Shown piece after piece: positions 3,765 to 17,454 of a DNA stretch of 44,122 nucleotides. Origin of the DNA: an uncultured Candidatus Saccharibacteria bacterium (GTDB lineage: Bacteria > Patescibacteriota > Doudnabacteria > UBA920); the NCBI GenBank assembly GCA_964589415.1, contig CAZPRQ010000001.1, positions 11,368 through 55,489 of the forward strand. Reading direction: 5' to 3'. The stretch's first letter is position 1; the number at the start of each line of letters is the position of its first letter. Both the position numbers and the translations under genes were made by a program. The notes beneath the pieces were generated by a model. That model did no database searches and was not told the DNA's origin. It was given only the letters and a program-made list of their open reading frames with translations.

Positions 3765-4691
3765 TTATTTTCTGCCAATAAACTCTATAATTTCGTTAAT
3801 CGTCTTGTCGCCCAAACCGGAAAGATTGGAAATATCTTCACCTGAAAGCGCGTTCAATTGCGCGAAGGTTGAAATACCATTTTTAGACAGAGCGTTTTTT
3901 GCCCGTGTAGACAAGGCCGATGATTCAATTTCATTTTCACCGGAACTTTCCACTAAAGGCTCGGCCTCGGGGGCAACAACCTCTTCCGGTAAAGAAATTG
4001 CCGGAGATGATTCCAAAAACATCATGCTAAAATGATCCACCAAAATATGGGAAGCGATTGTAATAGCCTCTTCCCCTGTCATACTGCCATCGGTTTCCAT
4101 AACTAAAGTAAGTTTGTCAAAATTGGTCAATTGACCTACACGCACGTTCGTCACGTCGAAATGTACAGATTTAATGGGTGTAAAAATAGCGTCTATGGCA
4201 ATCATGCCTATTTCCGGCTTGTGGCTTTCGCGGGCTTCCACAGGCTGATAACCCCGTCCTTGCTCAATAACAAATTCCATATCCAGTTCAGCATTTTTTC
4301 CGTCTAGCGTGCCAATGTGGAGGTCTTTATTTATTATTTCAACCTGGTCAGTCTCTTTAATATCCGCCGCGGTCACCACTTTTTCACCCTTAACCTTTAA
4401 CTGAACCTTTACCGGCTCGGCCGAATGGCTTTTTACTCGCAGTTGTTTTAAATTTAATATTATTTGTATGACGTCTTCCTTAACATGAGGAATGGTTGAA
4501 AACTCATGGTCAACAAATTTTATTTTTACCGAAGTTACCGCGGCTCCGGGGAGCGACGACAAAAGAACGCGGCGCAGCGCGTTGCCAATAGTAACACCGT
4601 ATCCCGGGTATAAAGGTTCCAGGCTTATGCTGTATTTATTGTTGCCCAGGTCTTCCGACTTGGCGCGATTGGGAAGTGGAATTGCTTCCAT
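3765..4691 (-). CDS. rpoA: DNA-directed RNA polymerase alpha subunit
   Basis: LEPLYPGYGVTIGNALRRVLLSSLPGAAVTSVKI in the N-terminal domain, and a C-terminal HhH domain (LSTRAKNALSKNGISTFAQL). GGAG SD before the ATG. Confidence 0.95.
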   Translation of the reverse strand: MEAIPLPNRAKSEDLGNNKYSISLEPLYPGYGVTIGNALRRVLLSSLPGAAVTSVKIKFVDHEFSTIPHVKEDVIQIILNLKQLRVKSHSAEPVKVQLKVKGEKVVTAADIKETDQVEIINKDLHIGTLDGKNAELDMEFVIEQGRGYQPVEARESHKPEIGMIAIDAIFTPIKSVHFDVTNVRVGQLTNFDKLTLVMETDGSMTGEEAITIASHILVDHFSMMFLESSPAISLPEEVVAPEAEPLVESSGENEIESSALSTRAKNALSKNGISTFAQLNALSGEDISNLSGLGDKTINEIIEFIGRK

Positions 4692-5526: not shown

Positions 5527-5994
5527 CTATACGCGTCTGGGTTTTTTGGGGCGTATACCGCCATGTGGAATGGGTGTTTGGTCTTTAATGGAAATAACGT
5601 TTAAACCACTTCCCTGCAGAGCCCTTACCGCGGACTCTCGTCCGCTGCCAATGCCCTTAATAAAAACATCAACTTCGGTCAAACCTCTCTCCTTTAGGCG
5701 CGCGAGAGTATCTTCCATGGTTTTTTGCCCCGCGTAGGGAGTAGATTTCTTAGAGCCTTTAAACCCAATTTTACCCGCGGAACTCCATAAAATAACATTA
5801 CCCGTAAGGTCGGTTACCGAAACTATGGTGTTGTTGTATGTGGAATTAATAAAAATTTTGCCTTTTGTAATTTTAGCTTTAGACTTCTTTTTCTTTGACT
5901 TGATTTTAGTGGCAACTTCAACAGAAGCTTCCGTCTTGGGAGCTTCTTCTGTTACTGCCGCTGTTAAGATTTGAGTTGTAGTTGTTTCTTCCAT
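5527..5994 (-). CDS. rpsK: 30S ribosomal protein S11 with a ~25-aa N-terminal extension
   Basis: GKIFINSTYNNTIVSVTDLTGNVILWSSAG...TPYAGQ...IKGIGSGRESAVRALQ...DQTPIPHGGIRPKKPRRV. Confidence 0.95.
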   Translation of the reverse strand: MEETTTTQILTAAVTEEAPKTEASVEVATKIKSKKKKSKAKITKGKIFINSTYNNTIVSVTDLTGNVILWSSAGKIGFKGSKKSTPYAGQKTMEDTLARLKERGLTEVDVFIKGIGSGRESAVRALQGSGLNVISIKDQTPIPHGGIRPKKPRRV

Positions 5995-8839: not shown

Positions 8840-10006
8840 CTATAACAGCCCTTTACTTTTCAGCCTTTTATCGAAAGATATAATTTTACTGTTTTCCACC
8901 TGGGGTTGGTTAAACGGGTCCACACCTCTTAAAACGGATGAATACACAGCAAAAAGCTGCCAAAACGCGGTAAATGGTCCAATCTCTTGGGCATTAAAAC
9001 CGTTAATTTCTACATGTGCAAAAGGAATACCGGCAATGCGCGCGTCCTCCATAGTGCCATCTGCCTCAAAATGCATGCTGTCTGCCAAACGAATCTGGTC
9101 CATATTTTTTAGCTGGCCGGACTTAATCCACACCTCATGAACCGGATTCGGGTAAGTAATCATAGTGTCATGTACAAATGAGTCTGTAGTTACAAAGCAG
9201 CCGCATATATTTTTTGGGCCGCCAAAAAAACGCTGATTTGTGTGATGCTGGCTTTCCGGCCCTTCGTGCGCGAAATAGGTTTGCCCCCTGCCTGACTTTC
9301 CAAAACTTTCATGGCACAGCTGGACAATTAACGCGGACATGGGAAAAAGGCTGTGCGAATAAAAAGGCATAAAAACATCGGTGTAACCTTGCTGTTCAAG
9401 CTGCCAAAATACGCTTGCCGCGTGCCAAGCCGGATTATCCTTTCCAAATTGCGCGTACAATTGTGCCGCGCCGTCGTATATGCCCTCAGCGTCCAAACCG
9501 GCTATCATGGCTGGCAATAAAGCCACCTCCGTTAGACCGGAAAAACGTCCGCCAATTGGCGGATGGTTTATAATTTTTCCGCCTAGCTTTTCCACGTACG
9601 CGCGCAAACTGCTATTGGTACCGGTTATGCACAAAATATTGTACCCGCTAAATTGGGAAAGGGCTTCAAAGACCGTTATATTTTCACCGGATTTTGAAAT
9701 TACAATAACTAAAGTTTCCTTTTCCGGCAAACTTAATTTTAACTTGTAAATATAATCCGGATCCGTAGTGCTTAAAAAATATACCTGCTTTACGGCCTGG
9801 CTATTTAAGGCGGAATAATACCCGTAAAAGCTGGTAACACTTCCACCATGTCCAATTATTAAAATATTTTTATACCCGGCGTAGCCCTTTGCCACATCTT
9901 CAATTAATTTAAAATCCGGCACATGGTTTAAAAACCCAACTTCTTGGGGTAAACTGCGGGGATCCATTTCTTCCCACTTAGGACAATTGTGGAATTGTAG
10001 TTTCAT
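8840..10006 (-). CDS. pgi: Glucose-6-phosphate isomerase (short form)
   Basis: SIS-type VIVISKSGENITV, PGI signature 1-like PPIGGRFSGLTEVALLPA, and signature 2-like GVDPFNQPQVENSK. Confidence 0.85.
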   Translation of the reverse strand: MKLQFHNCPKWEEMDPRSLPQEVGFLNHVPDFKLIEDVAKGYAGYKNILIIGHGGSVTSFYGYYSALNSQAVKQVYFLSTTDPDYIYKLKLSLPEKETLVIVISKSGENITVFEALSQFSGYNILCITGTNSSLRAYVEKLGGKIINHPPIGGRFSGLTEVALLPAMIAGLDAEGIYDGAAQLYAQFGKDNPAWHAASVFWQLEQQGYTDVFMPFYSHSLFPMSALIVQLCHESFGKSGRGQTYFAHEGPESQHHTNQRFFGGPKNICGCFVTTDSFVHDTMITYPNPVHEVWIKSGQLKNMDQIRLADSMHFEADGTMEDARIAGIPFAHVEINGFNAQEIGPFTAFWQLFAVYSSVLRGVDPFNQPQVENSKIISFDKRLKSKGLL

Positions 10007-10012
10007 ATAGCT

Positions 10013-10447
10013 TTAATTTTTTGTCTCAGGGAGCAGGTTACAAGCAGGGGTTTTTCTCCCCCTTTTTAAGGGGGAGTTAGAGGGGGTAAGTTCTTTGATT
10101 GTTTTATCGATTTCAAACATTACTCCTTCAATGTTATTCATAATATCAATATTACCAAATCTTACCAAATTTAATCCAAGCGATTTTAAAAATTTTTCTC
10201 TTAAATTATCATACTCAATTGCTTTAGAGCTAAAATGCGAATCTCCATCAGCCTCAAGCACCAATTTGAGTTTAGGACAATAAAAATCAACTATATAATT
10301 CCCAATACTAACCTGCCTTCTAAATTTATAGCCAAGTAATTGATTCTTGCGCAAATAATCCCAAAGGACTATTTCAGGCTGTGATCTGTGGTTCCTCAAA
10401 AACTTTCTTTGCTCAGTTTTTGCTTTGGTATTAAATATTTGGGTCAT
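10013..10447 (-). CDS. DUF559 (Vsr-like endonuclease fold) domain protein
   Basis: PEIVLWDYLRKNQLLGYKFRRQVSIGNYIVDFYCPKLKLVLEADGDSHF...LGLNLVRFGNIDI is a typical DUF559 core. The last ~25 codons read through the left flanking repeat. Confidence 0.85.
   Translation of the reverse strand: MTQIFNTKAKTEQRKFLRNHRSQPEIVLWDYLRKNQLLGYKFRRQVSIGNYIVDFYCPKLKLVLEADGDSHFSSKAIEYDNLREKFLKSLGLNLVRFGNIDIMNNIEGVMFEIDKTIKELTPSNSPLKRGRKTPACNLLPETKN
10056..10087. repeat. Palindromic element family A, left copy (inside the 3' end of the DUF559 ORF)
   Basis: CTCCCCCTTTTTAAGGGGGAGTTAGAGGGGGT resembles the reverse complement of 10449-10482. Confidence 0.7.
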
Positions 10448-10448
10448 T

Positions 10449-10482
10449 AACCCCTCCTAACCTCCCCTTTGAAAAGGGGAGG
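10449..10482. repeat. Palindromic element family A, right copy (between the alaS stop and the DUF559 start)
   Basis: AACCCCTCCTAACCTCCCCTTTGAAAAGGGGAGG. Inverted relative to 10056-10087 and closely similar to the revcomp of 15551-15600. Confidence 0.7.
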
Positions 10483-10491
10483 AACTAGACA

Positions 10492-12396
10492 TCAAGTTAC
10501 TTGCGCTTTAATTCTTCTAATACCCGCACTTGAGGCTTCTTCTTTTTGTATTTTAAATTTACCTATTATTCCGGTATGTTCTACATGCGGTCCGCCGCAC
10601 AACTCACGAGACACGACTTCGTCCGTTTTAGGATCATACGCCGTATAGACTGATACAGTGTCAGGATATTTCTCACCAAAAACGCCAATGGCATCTAACT
10701 TCCGCGCCTCCTCTAAGGACATAATTTCCTTTTTCATAGTCAAATCGCGCTCTACCCAACCGTTAACCAATTTTTCAACTTCTGCAATTTCCTCCGGGGT
10801 CATTTTTTTATCGTGCGTAAAATCAAACCGAGTGCGTTCTTCTGTAATATTACTCCCCTTCTGCCAGACATTCTCACCAATAACTTTACGCAAAGCCGCG
10901 TTCATTAAATGGGTAGCGGTATGGAGCCTGACAATCTTATCCGAATGACTTGCCAGCCCACCCTTAAACTGCCCGGCACTGGCCGTACGGGATAGGTCCT
11001 GGTGTTTTTTGAATTCTGTTTCAAATTCCTTTTTATCTATAACAAAACCGCTTTCCTCTGCTAACTCAGCTGTTACTTCCCAAGGAATACCATAAGTTTG
11101 ATAGACATCGAATGCTTCTTTACCGGTTATTTTTTGGTCTTTTAATATGGATTCGGAATTTTTTATTATTTTAGCCAGCTCTTTAAGCCCCTTTTCAAGA
11201 GTCAATTCAAACTTTTTCTGCTCCGTCTCAATTACGGCAAATATATTTTGTGATCGTTCCACTAATTCTGAATAACTCTCCGCATATATACTCACAACTT
11301 TCCCTACAAGAGCCTGGAGCCAATGACCTTGCAAGTTTAGAAGCTTTCCCATAACCAGAGTTCGACGAATAAGGCGACGTAAAAAGTATCCTCTATCCTT
11401 ATTTGAAGGCTCAATACCGTCTGACACCATAAACACGCTGGCTCTAATGTGATCAGCAATTATTCGAACTTTCTTCACCTCTTCGCCCGTCAGAAGTTCA
11501 TTCCCTCGTCCCAAAGATTCATAAAGCACATCAAACAAAGGCTTGAAGAGATCTGTATCAAAAATTGCTTGCTGGCCGCTTGCAGCCGCTAAAATACGCT
11601 CCAAGCCACCTCCAAAGTCTACATTTTGATTTTCGAGCTTCTTAAAACCATTCTCAGTTTTAACATACTCCATGAAAACGTTGTTGCCAATTTCTAAAAA
11701 ACGACCGCAGTCACAATTAACATGACAAGGCAAGTTGTGGTAAGGAGAACTTTCATGAATTTTAAGATGTTCGCCATAATCCCAAAACATTTCAGAATCG
11801 GGACCACCAGGTTCATTTACCGGCATATGAGATGTTATCCCAGCTCGTGACCACCAATTCTTTTCCTCGGGGTAATAAAATATCCTACCGCTTTGCATTC
11901 CATCACGCTCAGAAAAATCAACAATTTTGGCTTCAATCCCCTTGTTTGAAAATAATCCTTGCCAAATTCCGGCAGACTCCTCATCACGAGGAATTCCAAT
12001 ATCTTCTTTGCCGCGAAATACGGTGACATACAAATATTTTGGATCCAAACCAACATGCTCTGTTAGGAACTCAAACATCCATGAAATTTGCTCCTTTTTA
12101 AAATAATCCCCCAAACTCCAATTTCCGAGCATTTCGAAAAATGTAGTATGCCTATTATCACCAACTTCTTCAACATCCTGAGAACGGAAACACTTTTGTG
12201 AATCTGCAAGACGTGTTCCCTTTGGATGTTTTGCCCCCAACAAATATGGAACCATAGGTTGCATGCCGGACCCAGTAAATAAAGTAGTAGCATCATTCTC
12301 GGGTACCAAAGAAGACGAGGGTATAATAATATGATTTTTAGACTTGAAGAAATTAAGATACTTTTCTCTTAATTCCTGTGCTGTAATTTTAGGCAT
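10492..12396 (-). CDS. alaS: Alanine--tRNA ligase, short form ending after the editing domain
   Basis: N-terminus is ELREKYLNFFKSKNHIIIPSSSLVPENDATTLFTGSGMQPMVPY. Editing-domain motifs HTATHLMNAAL and CGGPHV are present. The ORF stops ~35 aa after CGGPHV. Confidence 0.92.
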   Translation of the reverse strand: MPKITAQELREKYLNFFKSKNHIIIPSSSLVPENDATTLFTGSGMQPMVPYLLGAKHPKGTRLADSQKCFRSQDVEEVGDNRHTTFFEMLGNWSLGDYFKKEQISWMFEFLTEHVGLDPKYLYVTVFRGKEDIGIPRDEESAGIWQGLFSNKGIEAKIVDFSERDGMQSGRIFYYPEEKNWWSRAGITSHMPVNEPGGPDSEMFWDYGEHLKIHESSPYHNLPCHVNCDCGRFLEIGNNVFMEYVKTENGFKKLENQNVDFGGGLERILAAASGQQAIFDTDLFKPLFDVLYESLGRGNELLTGEEVKKVRIIADHIRASVFMVSDGIEPSNKDRGYFLRRLIRRTLVMGKLLNLQGHWLQALVGKVVSIYAESYSELVERSQNIFAVIETEQKKFELTLEKGLKELAKIIKNSESILKDQKITGKEAFDVYQTYGIPWEVTAELAEESGFVIDKKEFETEFKKHQDLSRTASAGQFKGGLASHSDKIVRLHTATHLMNAALRKVIGENVWQKGSNITEERTRFDFTHDKKMTPEEIAEVEKLVNGWVERDLTMKKEIMSLEEARKLDAIGVFGEKYPDTVSVYTAYDPKTDEVVSRELCGGPHVEHTGIIGKFKIQKEEASSAGIRRIKAQVT

Positions 12397-12533
12397 AGCT
12401 AAATTAATTAAAATTGACCAAAATTAAATAAAATTCCATCGCGGATGTCTTCCCATTTTAAATATCAAATGAATATAGGACCCACTAATTCCCAAATTTA
12501 GTCATTAGACATTAGGACTTGATTTAAAATTTG

Positions 12534-13778
12534 TTATTTGGAATTTGTTATTTGCTGCAACGCAGCCTCCATCTGCGGATCTTTACCTGCCGCCACATCC
12601 TCTTCCGTAAGCTTAATCGCGATATCCGGCTCCAGCCCGTCCTTATTTAAATTCTTCCCACCTGGTGTTATCCACTTGGCAATGGTAATCTTTACCGCGC
12701 TACCGTCTTTCAAATCCACCAGCTCCTGAACGCTTCCTTTGCCAAAGGACTTTTCGCCGACTAATGTAGCCAGTTTATAATCATGCAAAGCACCGGACAA
12801 TATTTCAGACGCCGAAGCGCTACCGCCGTTTATGAGAATTACCGTTTTTATTCCCGCCAATCTGGAATTTCCGGCAGAATTAAAATCGTCTTCTCCGTCT
12901 GCTCTTTTTTCCTTAACCACCAGTTTGCCATTTTCCACCCAGTTTGAAGCCAATTCCACCGAGGTGTTTAAATACCCACCCGGATTATTACGCAAATCGA
13001 GCACAATGCCATTGACCGCCTTGGTAAGGGCCTCCTGCGCTGCCTGGTCAAATAATTTTTTGGTATCCGCGCCAAACTTGCTAATACCAATTACCATTAT
13101 TTTTTTGCCGTCAATTTCCTTAATTTCCCATTTCACACTTTTTACTTCTATTTTGTCTCTGGTTATGGAAAACTCCATGGGCTTTTCCTTACCCTCACGT
13201 AAAATAGTAAGTTTGACCTGCGTGCCCTTTGGGCCGCGAATTTCGCTTACCGCTTCCTCCACAGACCATTCCTGAGTGCTCTTTCCATTTACTTCCGCAA
13301 TTATGTCTTTTGGCAAAAGCCCTGCCTTATGGGCCGGCGTACCGTCCAGCGGGGCAACAACCACAATCACGCCTCCACGCCTGGATATTTCGGCCCCAAT
13401 GCCGGTGAACTCTCCCTGTAAATCGGTTTTAAAATTTTCTGACTGCTTGGGTTCAAAAAAATCTGTATATTGGTCACCGGTAGCCTGCACAGCCCCTCGA
13501 ATGGCACCGTACAAAATTTTCTGCTGGTCTACCGGCCGTTCAATGTATTTTGTGTTTACCACGTCTATGGCGTCCCACAAAAGCTGATAATTTACATCTT
13601 TGGGCTGGTTCTGTTGATTTACAATCTTAAACTCTTTTGGCTGAAATACATACCCCTTTTTCCCGGTCTGGAAACCCATGCCAAAAGCAGCAATAATTAA
13701 GAGTAAAATTAATAAAGCGCTGCCCTTAGGCCGCGGTTTTTGCAATTCAGGTTCAGATTGGTTTAATAAATTTTCCAT
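12534..13778 (-). CDS. ctpA: C-terminal processing peptidase, family S41, with PDZ domain
   Basis: N-terminal TM helix. PDZ segment FTGIGAEI...PLDGTPAHKAGLLPKDIIAEVNG. S41 motifs LDLRNNPGGYL and ILINGGSASASEI. Confidence 0.9.
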   Translation of the reverse strand: MENLLNQSEPELQKPRPKGSALLILLLIIAAFGMGFQTGKKGYVFQPKEFKIVNQQNQPKDVNYQLLWDAIDVVNTKYIERPVDQQKILYGAIRGAVQATGDQYTDFFEPKQSENFKTDLQGEFTGIGAEISRRGGVIVVVAPLDGTPAHKAGLLPKDIIAEVNGKSTQEWSVEEAVSEIRGPKGTQVKLTILREGKEKPMEFSITRDKIEVKSVKWEIKEIDGKKIMVIGISKFGADTKKLFDQAAQEALTKAVNGIVLDLRNNPGGYLNTSVELASNWVENGKLVVKEKRADGEDDFNSAGNSRLAGIKTVILINGGSASASEILSGALHDYKLATLVGEKSFGKGSVQELVDLKDGSAVKITIAKWITPGGKNLNKDGLEPDIAIKLTEEDVAAGKDPQMEAALQQITNSK

Positions 13779-13816
13779 GATAAATAATTACAGCTAATAT
13801 AAAAACAGTATACCAG

Positions 13817-13850
13817 AAAAAAAGCCCGACTCAAAGCTTTTCAGGCGGGA
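13817..13850 (-). terminator. Probable terminator after the glycan operon
   Basis: On the minus strand, an imperfect CCCGCC...GTCGGGC hairpin is followed by TTTTTTT (A-run 13817-13823 on plus). Confidence 0.5.
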
Positions 13851-13856
13851 ATGCCT

Positions 13857-14762
13857 TTATTTGCTTACCCTCGGCTCCGCTTTAAACATGTTAATAAAAG
13901 TCAAAAATGCCAGCCTGCCGTAAATTCCAAGCCATACAAACCAATTTAAGAAAAAAGGATACCGCGTTTTATAGTGCTTGCGGTAAAAAATCCACATGGA
14001 ATCATGAAACCACCTTAAAGCCAGGAAAGGGATTTTTTTGGATGATTCTCCTTTGTAGTGCAGCGCTTGGGCTTTAGGACAGTACCACACTTTATACCCC
14101 GCAAATTTAGCCCGCCAGCAATAATCCAAATCCTCACCGTACATAAAAAAGTCTTCGTCCAAAAGCCCAATATGACTAAACAGCTCGCGGCGAATAAGCA
14201 TAAAAGCACCTACCACGCTGTCAACTTCCATTTCCATATCCTCAGGCAAATTGGAATAATTGTAATTTGAAGTATTTTTTAAAAACAGCCTGGCAAAACC
14301 GCTCCATGGATTTGGAAACCTGCGTCGGCAAGCTAAATCCAGACTGCCATCCGCCTTTAGCAGCTTGCAGCCGGAAATCCCTATTTCAGGGCGCCTTTCC
14401 ATTAGCTCAATCATTATACTCAAAGTATTAGGAAATACTTCCGTATCGGGATTTAAAAGCAGAATATAGCGTCCTTTGGCCTGGTTTATTCCAATATTAT
14501 TTCCGCTAGCAAAACCGGTATTGCCGTTTCGTATGGCGGTTACAAAAAAACCTTGTTCCTTCAAATCGCGAAATTCAGCATTAAGCCATTCATAAGTGCC
14601 GTCGCCCGAGCCGTTATCGACCACAATAACTTCGCCAAAATATTTCTTGGACTGAGCCGTCTTGCTAAAAACAACGTCCTCGCTAGACCACAAGGATGGC
14701 AAAAGCACGCTCAAGTGTTTTTTAGATTTATACGCGAGAATAACTACGGAAATGTCCACCAT
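13857..14762 (-). CDS. Family 2 glycosyltransferase
   Basis: VVILAYKSKKHL...VVDNGSGDGT...NTGFASGNNIGINQAKGRYILLLNPDTEV...DEDFFMYGEDLDYCWR are typical GT2 (rhamnosyltransferase-like) motifs. Confidence 0.88.
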   Translation of the reverse strand: MVDISVVILAYKSKKHLSVLLPSLWSSEDVVFSKTAQSKKYFGEVIVVDNGSGDGTYEWLNAEFRDLKEQGFFVTAIRNGNTGFASGNNIGINQAKGRYILLLNPDTEVFPNTLSIMIELMERRPEIGISGCKLLKADGSLDLACRRRFPNPWSGFARLFLKNTSNYNYSNLPEDMEMEVDSVVGAFMLIRRELFSHIGLLDEDFFMYGEDLDYCWRAKFAGYKVWYCPKAQALHYKGESSKKIPFLALRWFHDSMWIFYRKHYKTRYPFFLNWFVWLGIYGRLAFLTFINMFKAEPRVSK

Positions 14763-14768
14763 AATATA

Positions 14769-15839
14769 TTATACCGGCTTAATCTTAAATTTTTGTGCGA
14801 ATTTTCTTTTCTTCCACATTAAAGTAATTTTACTCAGCATCTCTGGCAGTACCCGCAGGGTTGAAATTTCAAACAGCACTACATACAAAAACATGGCGAA
14901 TTCTCGAACAAAAAACTGCGGATAAAACCACGGGGAATTTTTTATATACATAAAGATATGGTTTTTGTAATTTAACTGCCTTATTTTTTCGGGAATTTTA
15001 CTGTGATGAGCTATGAATCCTAAAACATCTTTGTACCCGCCTTTCGAAGACCCGGCCGTACGTCCGTGATAGCCAATCGCGCTCGGAACAAACACATGCT
15101 TCCAACCTTTATTTGTCATTCGCCAGCTTAAATCCACATCCTCCCAATACGAATGGAAATCTTCATCGAAATATTCATAGTGGTTAGCGTTTAGCGGATA
15201 GCTTATAGCCTGCAAAGTCGAAGCACGGTACATAGCGCCAGCACCTGAGACCGCGTCAACAAAAATTGATGCGTCAAATTGCCCCCTATCTTCTTCGTGC
15301 TGTCCCCTGTCCCTCGCCCGCCCCGATTTGCTTATACTGACTCCTGTTGTATCCAAAACACAAGGGGAATCCTTGTGCCGCACAAGGATTCCCCTTGTGG
15401 GCGCGTCATCATGTTTTTGAATCTTTAAATCTTTAAATTGATACAGTTTCCCCGTCGCCGCCCCCACTTTCCCGTCCTCAAATACCTTTAGCATCTCTTC
15501 TATGTAATTCGGCTCTAAAATTAGGTCCGGGTTCACAAGCTGAAAAAATTCAACCTCTCCCCCATCCCTCCCCTCATGAGGGAAGGGATTAAGGGAGGGG
15601 TTGCAGTATCTATCGAATACCAAATTATGGCCTTTTGCAAAACCAATATTATATCCCGGATCTATTATTTCGACGTTAGGGAATTTTGACGCAAGTAACT
15701 CTTTTGAGCCGTCATTATTTCCGGAAATTACAGCTACAACATTAAAATCCTTGAAAGTCTGGTTAAAAATAGCCGAAAACACCGGTTCAATCCACTGGCG
15801 GTTATTGTATATTACTTGGACTATGGTAACTTTTGACAT
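14769..15839 (-). CDS. Family 2 glycosyltransferase carrying two in-frame palindromic-element insertions
   Basis: GT2 motifs: IVQVIYNN, NIGFAKGHN, LVNPDLILEP, DEDFHSYWEDVDLSWR. These are interrupted by peptide segments CNPSLNPFPHEGRDGGEVE and APTRGILVRHKDSPCV, each encoded by palindromic DNA. Confidence 0.85.
   Translation of the reverse strand: MSKVTIVQVIYNNRQWIEPVFSAIFNQTFKDFNVVAVISGNNDGSKELLASKFPNVEIIDPGYNIGFAKGHNLVFDRYCNPSLNPFPHEGRDGGEVEFFQLVNPDLILEPNYIEEMLKVFEDGKVGAATGKLYQFKDLKIQKHDDAPTRGILVRHKDSPCVLDTTGVSISKSGRARDRGQHEEDRGQFDASIFVDAVSGAGAMYRASTLQAISYPLNANHYEYFDEDFHSYWEDVDLSWRMTNKGWKHVFVPSAIGYHGRTAGSSKGGYKDVLGFIAHHSKIPEKIRQLNYKNHIFMYIKNSPWFYPQFFVREFAMFLYVVLFEISTLRVLPEMLSKITLMWKKRKFAQKFKIKPV
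15359..15399. repeat. Palindromic element family B, copy inside the GT2 CDS
   Basis: Perfect 19-bp arms CACAAGGGGAATCCTTGTG / CACAAGGATTCCCCTTGTG around a CCG loop. Related to 27824-27866. Confidence 0.85.
15551..15600. repeat. Palindromic element family A, solo copy inside the GT2 CDS
   Basis: CAACCTCTCCCCCATCCCTCCCCTCATGAGGGAAGGGATTAAGGGAGGGG. Continuing into 15601-15602, its revcomp (AACCCCTCCCTTAATCCCTTCCCTCATGAGGGGAGG...) aligns with 10449-10482 (AACCCCTCCTAACCTCCCCTTTGAAAAGGGGAGG). Confidence 0.75.
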
Positions 15840-15855
15840 AATTAAATTTTAGGGC

Positions 15856-17454
15856 CTACCCGCGGCCGCTTTTTGGGCCGACAAAACCTGTTAATTCATT
15901 TCCAATTATACCTTCAGTCTTAATATTTCTTAAAATAGCTCCGGAGGCCGCCAATTCTAAAAAGAAAAATATAAGAGCCTTGTCATTGTACCAGGTAACG
16001 TCAAAAAAAGCCGCCGCCGCAAGCCACAAAAAAACCAAACCCGCCTGCAGTACCAAAAACAGCCAGATTGTGTTTTCTTTTTGGTTTACTTTCACATATT
16101 TCCAAAACTCCCGGCAAACTGTTAGCCAAAAAAGCGCGAACAAAACCAACCCAAGCCAACCAAGCTCAACGGCGATATGTAAATACAAGTTATGAGCTGT
16201 AACGTACTTTTGCGGCAAATTATACCGCAAGTTTTTTTGTTCCGCCAAAAGTTCATATTTAACATTTGCCAACGCTTCGGGCGTAGCCGCCGAAACTAAA
16301 AAATTTGCCGCCCCGGTTCCAAGTGGATGCGAAATGGCATAGCGTGCGCTTTCTTTCCATATAAGTATACGCCCCGCGTTGGAAGTTTCATTTAAATCGT
16401 AAATGCTCTGGGCGCGATTTAAGAAATTTTCTTCAAACACCCCTCCGGCGCGTACAAATGCCAGCCCCCTATTTATGAGAGGAGAAATTGCAAATAATAC
16501 AACAATAATTAAAAGCGGCCAAAAAAAAGTTTTAACAGCTGGCCTCAAAAAAGTTTTTGCGTACGAAATTATTATTGCCAAAAGCGGGGCAAGCATTCCC
16601 ACCCACACGGCTCGCGTGCCGGACAAAATTAGCGCCAACGAAGCAAAACGGATTCCAGACCAAATAAAGCGGCGAAGTCTCTGGGATGCACCCATGGTTA
16701 GCGCGGCGCCTATACCAATTGCATAAACACACAAATAGGCAAACGACTGCGAATCCGGCATTATGCCAAACATGCGCAGCTGACGCCCATCGGTAAATGA
16801 AAACCAAGAATTGGAATACAGAGAAACGACGGCAAAATTCACTCCATAATACGCTTGTGTAAATGTGGTCGCCCAAAAAACCCAAAAAGTGTCCAGTGGC
16901 GTAAAAAAAGTGTAAGCTAACTGCCCAAAACCCGCGGCAATAAAAACCGATAAACTTACGGCCGCGTACCTAAAAAGCGCGAGCACCTGCTCTTTAGTTT
17001 GAATAGTTTGGACCATGACGAAATAAAACAAAAAAATATTAAAAAAGAACAAAAATTGCATTAGTGCTGGCAATCGAAATGACGACCAAATACTGCTAAT
17101 AAGTATAAGCGCGCCAAAGGCATACAAATACCGATCCCAAGGCAAAAACACTATGCGTTTTAAACTAAATTTATTTTCCTTAAAAAACCAAACTACAAAA
17201 AGCCAGGCCACCAGCGGCCGCCAGGCTGACAATGTTTCAAAAAAACCGTTAGGCACAATGACCATGGCCGGCAAGGAGGCCACAAGCACGTATACACCTT
17301 CCTCGAGTGGCCGAAAAACAATATAAAGCATTACAATGGCCATATTCACCCATACAAGCCAAGTTGGCCAGCCAAACACAGCCATTAGAAGCACGGAAAA
17401 TAGTTGCCAAACAACCAGTATGGCTATATAAAATTTTCTTGAAAAATTATGCAT
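15856..17454 (-). CDS. O-antigen ligase/polymerase-like (Wzy_C family) polytopic membrane protein
   Basis: At least 10 hydrophobic helices. AHNLYLHIAVELGWLGLVLFALF resembles the Wzy_C/O-antigen ligase motif. Overlaps the GT4 stop by 8 nt. Confidence 0.8.
   Translation of the reverse strand: MHNFSRKFYIAILVVWQLFSVLLMAVFGWPTWLVWVNMAIVMLYIVFRPLEEGVYVLVASLPAMVIVPNGFFETLSAWRPLVAWLFVVWFFKENKFSLKRIVFLPWDRYLYAFGALILISSIWSSFRLPALMQFLFFFNIFLFYFVMVQTIQTKEQVLALFRYAAVSLSVFIAAGFGQLAYTFFTPLDTFWVFWATTFTQAYYGVNFAVVSLYSNSWFSFTDGRQLRMFGIMPDSQSFAYLCVYAIGIGAALTMGASQRLRRFIWSGIRFASLALILSGTRAVWVGMLAPLLAIIISYAKTFLRPAVKTFFWPLLIIVVLFAISPLINRGLAFVRAGGVFEENFLNRAQSIYDLNETSNAGRILIWKESARYAISHPLGTGAANFLVSAATPEALANVKYELLAEQKNLRYNLPQKYVTAHNLYLHIAVELGWLGLVLFALFWLTVCREFWKYVKVNQKENTIWLFLVLQAGLVFLWLAAAAFFDVTWYNDKALIFFFLELAASGAILRNIKTEGIIGNELTGFVGPKSGRG

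Follow-up and report, generated by a model that had tools for sequence, protein, structure and literature searches.

The locus considered here raises the question of what a small nuclease-fold gene, set between alaS and pgi and bracketed by short inverted repeats, has to do with the repeats at its ends. It lies in a 44,122-nucleotide (nt) stretch of contig CAZPRQ010000001.1 (assembly GCA_964589415.1, positions 11,368 to 55,489, forward strand) from an uncultured bacterium of the Patescibacteria (Doudnabacteria-like); this whole stretch is called the window below. In the initial annotation, gene and repeats were read as a candidate mobile or homing cassette. The analysis reported here assigns the repeats to an already known kind, the intrastrand triplex motif (TM; also named BoxC or PIT), and establishes that inverted TM doublets, in a fixed polarity, enclose DUF559 genes of many phyla; with about an even chance of being right, we further put forward the DUF559 protein as the cognate nuclease of these repeats.

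The gene is an intact open reading frame (ORF) of 144 amino acids (aa) at 10013..10447 on the minus strand, with a DUF559 domain (PF04480, Vsr-like PD-(D/E)xK fold) at aa 11-117 (nt 10097-10417), and both its coordinates and its family are as initially annotated (Pfam E = 8.6e-31; 106.5 bits against a gathering cutoff of 20.6). Two arms of 35 nt each (10053-10087 and 10450-10484), 77% complementary and 362 nt apart, flank it in inverted orientation, and each arm is a hairpin in its own right, just as had been described. On the gene strand the upstream arm (10450..10484, minus strand) consists of a C-arm (CCTCCCCTTT), a loop, a G-arm (AAAGGGGAGG), the trinucleotide TTA and a G-box (GGAGGGG, 10451-10457); its hairpin (10461-10482) has a perfect 10-bp stem with a predicted DNA folding energy of -9.6 kcal/mol, and its G-box doubles as a GGAGG Shine-Dalgarno-like sequence 5 nt before the DUF559 ATG. 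The downstream arm, read in TM orientation (10053..10087, plus strand), runs through a C-arm (CTCCCCCTT), a loop, a G-arm (AAGGGGGAG), TTA and a G-box (GAGGGGG, 10080-10086), with a perfect 9-bp stem at 10056-10076; on the gene strand this arm is a C-box, TAA and a hairpin, and codes for TPSNSPLKRGR. Both hairpins have a polypyrimidine 5' arm, and in both the TTA is followed by a block that is an exact mirror of the purine arm, and not its complement, at 7/7 positions (GGGGGAG/GAGGGGG in the left arm, GGGGAGG/GGAGGGG in the right), a feature that had been missed before. In 100 dinucleotide-preserving shuffles of the window, polypyrimidine hairpins arose at a mean of 0.14 and 0/100 shuffles combined such a hairpin with a mirrored third strand, whereas the real sequence contains a pair of them that converge on a single gene; the full content of the window is these two TM arms plus one solo copy. 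A scan of 9000-16500 against Rfam at permissive E-values returned nothing relevant, and a promoter and terminator scan found no T-runs after the arm hairpins on the gene strand and counts not above those of the shuffles.

Because the hairpin, the 3-nt TTA loop and the mirrored purine block fit the published definition, the arms are of TM type. That definition comprises a pyrimidine-rich arm, a loop of 3-6 nt, a complementary purine arm, a 3-nt loop and a mirror purine block (class II purine motif; PMC4666352). The arms are therefore not a new kind of element but a repeat described in 1992, 2000 and 2015. E. coli yielded BoxC in the 1990s, and Maher and colleagues came upon it again in 2000, naming it the PIT element (per PMC4666352); the survey of Holder et al. 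(NAR 2015; PMC4666352) lists 3,610 copies of the enterobacterial form, TM_ECO, in 262 proteobacterial genomes, with cyanobacteria rich in G/C-rich motifs of this type. The same survey tied TM sites to local genome variability, tied no gene, no mobile element and no consensus of flanking genes to the motif, and mentions neither ycjD nor DUF559 nor an endonuclease (PMC4666352). The window repeats share with BoxC/PIT/TM_ECO the architecture, the frequent close inverted pairs and the dispersed, intergenic placing, and TM_ECO no. 9 of E. coli K-12 stands just downstream of ycjD, the DUF559 gene of that species; they differ in host and in the stems (CTCCCCC and CCTCCCC), which do not match the TM_ECO consensus (CCCTCNCCC N3-6 GGGNGAGGG N3 GGGNGAGGG) and represent another sequence variant. 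Early BoxC work is reportedly due to Bergler (1992), Bachellier and Hoyne.

The pairing of repeat and gene extends far beyond the window. A set of 80 DUF559 loci was retrieved via an alignment of homologues (labels such as L080 denote individual loci) and spans Patescibacteria, Gamma- and Deltaproteobacteria, Bacteroidota, Chloroflexota, Nitrospira, Ignavibacteria, Planctomycetota and others. At these loci, polypyrimidine-stem hairpins reached a density of 6-14 per kb per locus in the 100 nt next to the gene, compared with 0.03-0.09 per kb beyond 1 kb, a more than 100-fold enrichment at gene ends that bears out the earlier suggestion that the repeats belong with the gene. A mirrored third block (at least 6/7 positions) was present in 75% of the 213 hairpins vs 2.4% of random positions, and the most frequent second loop was TTA. 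A hairpin lay within 200 nt of the gene in 73/80 loci, a full TM in 62/80 and a TM on both sides in 34/80. Upstream of the gene, the nearest TM had the order hairpin-then-G-box in 38/48 loci; downstream, the order of the nearest TM was C-box-then-hairpin in 36/48, so that the third-strand boxes face the gene. The loops of the two arms of a cassette are mutual reverse complements (e.g., ACC/GGT in L080, TTC/GAA in L011), which makes them true inverted repeats rather than a duplicated palindromic target. The downstream arm usually touches the end of the domain or runs into it (median offset -1.5 nt), and the distance from TM to start codon has an interquartile range of 20-74 nt. Searches among open-access papers and preprints for DUF559, ycjD and PF04480/COG2852, and for papers citing PMC4666352, brought up no report of this association; both the repeat and the protein family are known, and the pairing of the two appears to be new.

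Short and compositionally simple as the arms are (a loose pattern with three mismatches gave 3 matches vs 0.59 expected), the chance that their similarity arises from G/C-rich low complexity or from a conserved C-terminal peptide is vanishingly small, and we consider this explanation refuted by the enrichment at 80 independent loci, by the 7/7 mirrors and by the shuffles, none of which yielded a TM. A conserved protein tail alone had been named at the outset as a finding that would undo the cassette reading, and it fails to do so: the tail lies outside the domain, the motif also stands upstream in non-coding DNA, and the reading frames differ. The last ~25 codons of the window ORF (tail ...TPSNSPLKRGR...) are, as first noticed, a read-through into the left repeat, that is, into the downstream arm, and homologues align over ~75-90% of the ORF only. 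Tails such as TPSNSPLKRGR, TPSNSPLVRGR and TPSNSPLKGGE are common to proteins that are 44-53% identical to that of the window in the core, and other homologues end in PPLLRKEGA or SPPSQGGD, which are the same DNA in other reading frames; the conserved feature is therefore one of DNA and not of peptide. N- and C-terminal extensions of the forms PLLxKEGxGxV, PPLxPPxKGG and TPSNSPLxRGR (proteins P0015, P0032, P0058, P0088, P0090 and P0102) are likewise translated TMs, as are spurious ORFs in loci L090-L169, a recurrent annotation artefact.

Within the cassettes, the pattern of conservation indicates where constraint acts. Among 28 cassettes that passed a strict definition, the third block and the purine arm of the same TM are mirror images at 6.9/7 positions, a figure that is partly built in since these cassettes were chosen for a mirror score of at least 6/7, whereas the two arms of one cassette agree at just 5.1-5.4/7 positions. 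This difference points to selection within each TM, on hairpin plus mirror symmetry. Where the box changes, it covaries as a mirror (GGGAAGG/GGATGGG, GGGGGAC/CAGGGGG, GAGAAGG/GGATGAG), and the A-to-T changes give T·A:T triplets, which are permitted in purine-motif triplexes (PMC4666352). In four Nitrospira species with a common locus, both TMs are near-invariant and the adjacent spacers and 3' coding sequence vary; together with the tails shared by proteins of modest core identity, this shows that the TM sequence is more conserved than the DUF559 gene. A long-range stem around the gene, of the intervening-sequence-like or RNase III type, was weighed in view of the seeming complementarity of G-box and C-box and was ruled out by the low agreement between arms that are each internally near-perfect. 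One locus of a Fusobacteriaceae species (L214, 2925-2995) carries, between the hairpin and the G-box of its upstream TM, an insert of ~37 nt with a palindromic sequence of its own (ATAAACTTGAGACTTTAGTTTAT...); the upstream TM persists in this AT-rich locus, and none was seen downstream of the gene.

Conservation of TMs at vertically inherited loci would also suit a role in cis, in which the repeats act on expression of the gene as insulating or stabilising stem-loops, as a Shine-Dalgarno/anti-Shine-Dalgarno switch or as a 3' RNA structure that curbs a potentially toxic nuclease, and in which their dispersal elsewhere has nothing to do with the protein. The C-arm mimics an anti-Shine-Dalgarno sequence (CCUCC), the G-arm and G-box are GGAGG-like, the G-box of the window stands 5 nt ahead of the ATG, and the boxes consistently face the gene. 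Nevertheless, we hold such a role to be improbable: the distance from TM to start codon varies widely (see the interquartile range above), the same motif stands at both ends of the gene, and it occurs mostly in gene-less doublets beside unrelated genes. Moreover, published tests of PIT elements found no promoter or terminator activity (per PMC4666352), and an RNA hairpin function would leave the mirror symmetry unexplained.

The motif was also approached from the side of the repeat, with an exact-pattern scan of metagenome contigs that is unbiased by DUF559 and gave 80 loci with 88 pattern matches. Most TMs in this set form close inverted doublets, and it is as doublets without a gene that the motif commonly occurs. 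A DUF559 gene lay within 170 nt of the motif in 4/80 loci, and a fifth locus has one 1.5 kb off. Doublets whose boxes face each other had gaps of 10-79 nt (21 cases) or of 358-372 nt (3 cases), and all three long gaps held a DUF559 gene; gaps of hairpin-facing doublets were mainly 7-30 nt (14 cases). No other protein family recurred beside the TMs of these 80 loci, the rest being ordinary neighbours or repeat read-through ORFs, and the GIY-YIG and four-helix-bundle genes that we had expected as other cargo did not recur either. L053 has a doublet without a gene (5651-5726) whose arms, TAGATC/GATCTA extensions included, are those found around its DUF559 gene 2.3 kb away. Structurally, a cassette is thus a TM doublet with its spacer replaced by a gene, in the relationship of an autonomous to a miniature form, and the gene-less versions resembling miniature inverted-repeat transposable elements (MITEs) that had been postulated do exist, most commonly as doublets with spacers of 10-79 nt. 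Directly upstream of the DUF559 gene of L053, the unit of TM plus spacer occurs three times in tandem with a period of 50 nt (2840-2965).

Comparison with relatives bears on how the cassette reached its place. The gene order on the window's minus strand is S41 peptidase, alaS (10492-12396), the DUF559 ORF, pgi (8840-10006), a 561-aa gene and infA; the alaS stop is 44 nt from the DUF559 ATG, as initially given, and the DUF559 stop is 6 nt from the pgi ATG, where 7 nt had been stated. The G+C content of the DUF559 ORF is 27-35%, vs 40-47% in the neighbouring genes. Relatives whose glucose-6-phosphate isomerase (PGI) is 61-65% identical keep the order S41 peptidase, alaS, pgi, a gene of 56x aa and infA/rpsM. 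The empty site that the initial annotation had proposed to look for was found in two of them (L220 and L222), where alaS and pgi are 25 and 36 nt apart with nothing between; others have unrelated junction ORFs of 340 aa or 132-144 aa, without TMs. Since two relatives have an unoccupied junction and others hold unrelated ORFs, the DUF559 cassette is most simply interpreted as an insertion at an otherwise tight or variably filled junction. The junction (L081-L084, L220-L222) is a hot spot for small lineage-specific ORFs, the unrelated ones without a significant Pfam match. In L085 (2973-3591) a nucleotidyltransferase/HepT-like toxin-antitoxin pair lies between a 549-aa gene and infA, a further indication that small insertions can enter this conserved row of genes. 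It is also worth noting that the window PGI (388 aa) belongs to a divergent, short PGI-like family typical of the lineage, and that the PGIs of the window and its relatives score at or just under the Pfam gathering threshold (21.8 vs 22 bits, partial match).

The window holds a second insertion, away from the DUF559 gene. A solo copy of the repeat had been reported inside a glycosyltransferase gene, and it is indeed a genuine insertion, but it differs from the arms, being a two-sided palindrome of C-box, hairpin and G-box (~15551-15602, insertion to 15605; long hairpin of -17 kcal/mol). The inserted DNA is a 48-nt, 16-codon in-frame stretch (15558-15605, CNPSLNPFPHEGRDGG) in a GT2 glycosyltransferase ORF (14769-15839, minus strand), between the conserved motifs GHNLVF and EFFQLVNPD. 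It is absent from 8/8 homologues with identity of up to 70%, and a TM-like element therefore entered a coding gene in this lineage. Rickettsia palindromic elements, reportedly described by Ogata et al. in 2000, lie in frame within protein-coding genes; the solo copy resembles them as a short palindrome in frame in a gene, but the sequences are unrelated and those elements measure 100-150 bp vs 48 bp here.

In several lineages, DUF559 genes stay in place. Five groups of related species (Nitrospira, Leeuwenhoekiella and others) each keep the gene at one syntenic position, with interspecies identities of 67-85% that are similar to those of the flanking proteins, and synteny is fixed over 55-90% flank divergence. 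The exact DUF559 protein of a Fusobacteriaceae species occurs on 10 contigs, in single copy and with the same context in 6/6 of the places listed. Cargo of phages or plasmids was ruled out by rarity: the TM motif had 1 match in 2.9 M viral contigs, and DUF559 genes of this type occur in 3/50,697 phage records and in 40/72,556 plasmid records, the latter mostly chromids or mislabelled chromosomes.

These distributions fit poorly with the reading first given to the locus, a classical cut-and-paste transposon with terminal inverted repeats (TIRs), DUF559 as its transposase and the gene-less doublets as its MITEs. Its attractions are the 35-nt inverted repeats with reverse-complementary loops around one small gene, the short MITE-like doublets, the in-frame insertion in the GT2 gene and the unoccupied junction of relatives. 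However, the check for target-site duplications that had been recommended found none at the window cassette; the GT2 insertion likewise has none, a doublet in E. coli has no clean one, and there is no DDE transposase in the system. The gene has one copy per genome where this is visible, is fixed at syntenic positions in several lineages and is rare on plasmids and phages; moreover, the arms of a cassette differ from each other while each is internally perfect. We know of no PD-(D/E)xK protein of DUF559 size that acts as a lone transposase. Such a transposon is accordingly a poor prospect and the least supported of the non-trivial readings. From the initial idea of an autonomous mobile or homing cassette, the insertion and the MITE-like forms stand, and active hopping does not, given the missing duplications, the single copies, the vertical inheritance and the rarity in phages and plasmids. 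An autonomous transposon or homing cassette is not demonstrated, and the facts are better matched by a nuclease gene that is resident in the genome and set between copies of its own dispersed repeat.

The protein itself leaves some room for a free-standing homing endonuclease, a selfish DUF559 gene that would cut the centre of an empty doublet and be copied into it, TMs being its targets and not its products. The window ORF retains 18/18 invariant residues of the family (alignment of 32 homologues), and its Pfam matches are to DUF559 and, below threshold, MTES_1575 only, with no HUH/Y1 transposase of the RAYT type. It also matches NCBIfam PRK09767/YcjD (E = 8.8e-19), at 67.7 bits vs an equivalog cutoff of 218, and is thus a family member and not a YcjD orthologue. 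In a profile search of the PDB, the DUF559 family matched 3HRL, solved as an "endonuclease-like protein" (E = 1.8e-32), more weakly PvuRts1I, and, weakly and over the core only, the catalytic domain of the homing endonuclease I-Bth0305I (3R3P; E = 9e-4). The likeness to I-Bth0305I, a Vsr-like/EDxHD enzyme, and to Vsr lies in a common nuclease fold family by profile and in the small, selfish-looking gene. An intron encodes I-Bth0305I, which possesses a separate DNA-binding domain; by contrast, the window gene is associated with neither intron nor intein and codes for the core domain only. Apart from this remote profile similarity, homing would be consistent with a gene placed exactly in the spacer of box-facing doublets, with empty doublets that have the same arms and with an alaS-pgi junction that is occupied only sporadically among relatives. 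On the other hand, the relatives' unoccupied junctions hold no empty TM doublet as a target, the gene remains single-copy despite many doublets (E. coli K-12 has one ycjD, 5 TM doublets and 23 repeats), it is kept vertically with a divergence like that of the flanking genes, and arms of 35 nt are short for homology-driven copying. Taken together, homing is unlikely, though it deserves to be kept in mind.

E. coli offers many genomes of one species in which gene and repeat can be compared. In K-12 the DUF559 gene ycjD is followed by degenerate TMs and then by TM_ECO no. 9. Downstream of the gene (locus L086, ~4040-4420; K-12 gene at NC_000913.3 1351039-1351410) there is a ~45-nt direct repeat of the ycjD 3' end (GGAGACGGTGCTGGAGAATATTC...GAACCG), and the order of this repeat, degenerate TM remnants and TM_ECO no. 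9 resembles what would remain of a second cassette end or of a rearranged one. The ycjD-fabI (envM) region is reportedly also the site of the first BoxC description. ycjD is present in 3,375/5,426 complete E. coli genomes, and the eefRABCD operon stands in its place elsewhere; ycjD as a clean presence/absence cassette was discarded, the gene being swapped with eefRABCD instead and the homology breakpoint lying ~50 nt beyond the TM. The gene occurs in phylogroups A, B1 and C (plus sequence types ST69 and ST182) and the eef operon in the rest (PMC12817139). Among 59 evenly spaced chromosomes, places matched by a TM-containing query numbered a median of 18 (10-25) in genomes with ycjD vs 4 (2-13) in those without (P = 9e-10). 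A higher TM count in the presence of ycjD is what a partnership of nuclease and repeat predicts, but phylogeny confounds the comparison. For the strains named in the published table of TM_ECO counts, we take the phylogroups to be as follows. The table gives 19-30 copies for A/B1-type strains, 10-15 for D/E strains, 6 for IAI39 and 1-2 for B2 strains (PMC4666352, supplement). At hrpB-mrcB (L210, 445-525, against L211-L213), the TM doublet (TM_ECO 1 and 2) is absent in a B2 (ST95) strain, and in an O111:H8 strain it has collapsed to a single hairpin by a deletion between both hairpins, in agreement with the remark that deletions tend to preserve a hairpin (PMC4666352).

The reading that we put forward, with even chances in its favour, is that the locus is an inverted TM doublet of ~430 bp with the DUF559 gene as its spacer, and that the DUF559 protein is the cognate nuclease of the repeat in a REPIN-RAYT-like arrangement. 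A little short of an even chance, in our estimate, is the broader proposal that nucleases of the DUF559/YcjD family are the missing protein partners of BoxC/PIT TMs throughout Bacteria and constitute a second system of the REPIN-RAYT kind. The profile relation to I-Bth0305I, the GT2 insertion, the unoccupied junctions and the E. coli medians were all counted for the cognate-nuclease reading. Both that the protein acts on the repeats and how it does so we infer. Its substrate would be the TM, recognised through its fold or its sequence symmetry (a hairpin and a mirrored purine box) and nicked at the motif or close by, and nicking would drive the copying, dispersal or maintenance of TM doublets in trans, with the protein's own gene remaining TM-flanked; this would be REPIN-RAYT logic with a Vsr-like PD-(D/E)xK nuclease in place of an HUH transposase.

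Several observations weigh against this proposal. Binding or cutting of TMs is, for any DUF559 protein, something we infer from association, and at ~95% of the TM sites in the 80 metagenome loci a DUF559 gene is absent from the vicinity. TM places still number 2-13 in E. coli lineages that lack ycjD, and the correlation of ycjD with TM count follows phylogroup. Variants of ycjD that are 93% identical to that of K-12 are probably ST69/ST182-like, judging by PMC12817139, and in the one semi-independent contrast the genomes with ST69-like variants have 10-15 places vs 11-13 in O157-type genomes without ycjD, that is, no difference; E. coli was therefore dropped as an independent test of more repeats where the nuclease is present, being phylogroup-bound and null in this contrast. 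The missing target-site duplications count here too (the outer flanks of the cassette are GTTTTT and AACTAG, and the E. coli doublet concerned is that at hrpB-mrcB), as does the lack of precise excision footprints at the relatives' alaS-pgi junctions and at the same E. coli doublet. Vertical inheritance of DUF559 at fixed loci would fit a domesticated partner, and equally a gene that tolerates or attracts repeats. Finally, TM_ECO oligonucleotides fold as triplexes in vitro but no stable triplex was seen in vivo (PMC4666352), and the earlier study by Maher and colleagues found PIT elements without promoter or terminator activity (per PMC4666352).

With these reservations, the closest functional analogue of the proposed cognate nuclease and its repeats is the REPIN-RAYT system, by analogy in layout. 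REP-RAYT systems are also said to have been treated by Nunvar in 2010. In REPIN-RAYT systems, or REPtrons (Bertels & Rainey 2011; PMC3116915), as here, a nuclease gene is flanked by inverted short palindromic repeats that are dispersed elsewhere mainly as gene-less doublets. The nuclease gene is single-copy and mostly vertical in Nitrospira, Leeuwenhoekiella, other groups and the Fusobacteriaceae species, and in the window lineage it is absent at the same site in relatives. However, RAYTs are HUH/Y1 (IS200/IS605-type) transposases whereas the window protein has a Vsr-like PD-(D/E)xK fold, and TMs have a mirrored third block, a triplex signature that REPs lack; the window locus, having no HUH transposase, is not a member of that class.

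BoxC/PIT/TM repeats have been catalogued for about three decades with no known protein partner, origin or function, and DUF559 is a widespread nuclease-fold family that likewise has no assigned function. Their tight, polar, cross-phylum pairing supplies the first candidate partner protein for the TM repeat and makes both problems testable, for which E. coli K-12, with its one ycjD and 23 repeats, is a convenient organism. For annotation, odd protein tails such as "PSNSPLKRGR", "PLLxKEG" and "PPxxGG" are explained as TM read-through, and repeats of the TM type can sit in frame inside real genes. If a nuclease of this family does read triplex-type or mirror-symmetric DNA, this would add a new way of recognising repeats and, beside REPIN-RAYT, a further class of partnership between repeat and nuclease, and it would give a function to a large family of domains of unknown function and to a repeat family unexplained since the 1990s.

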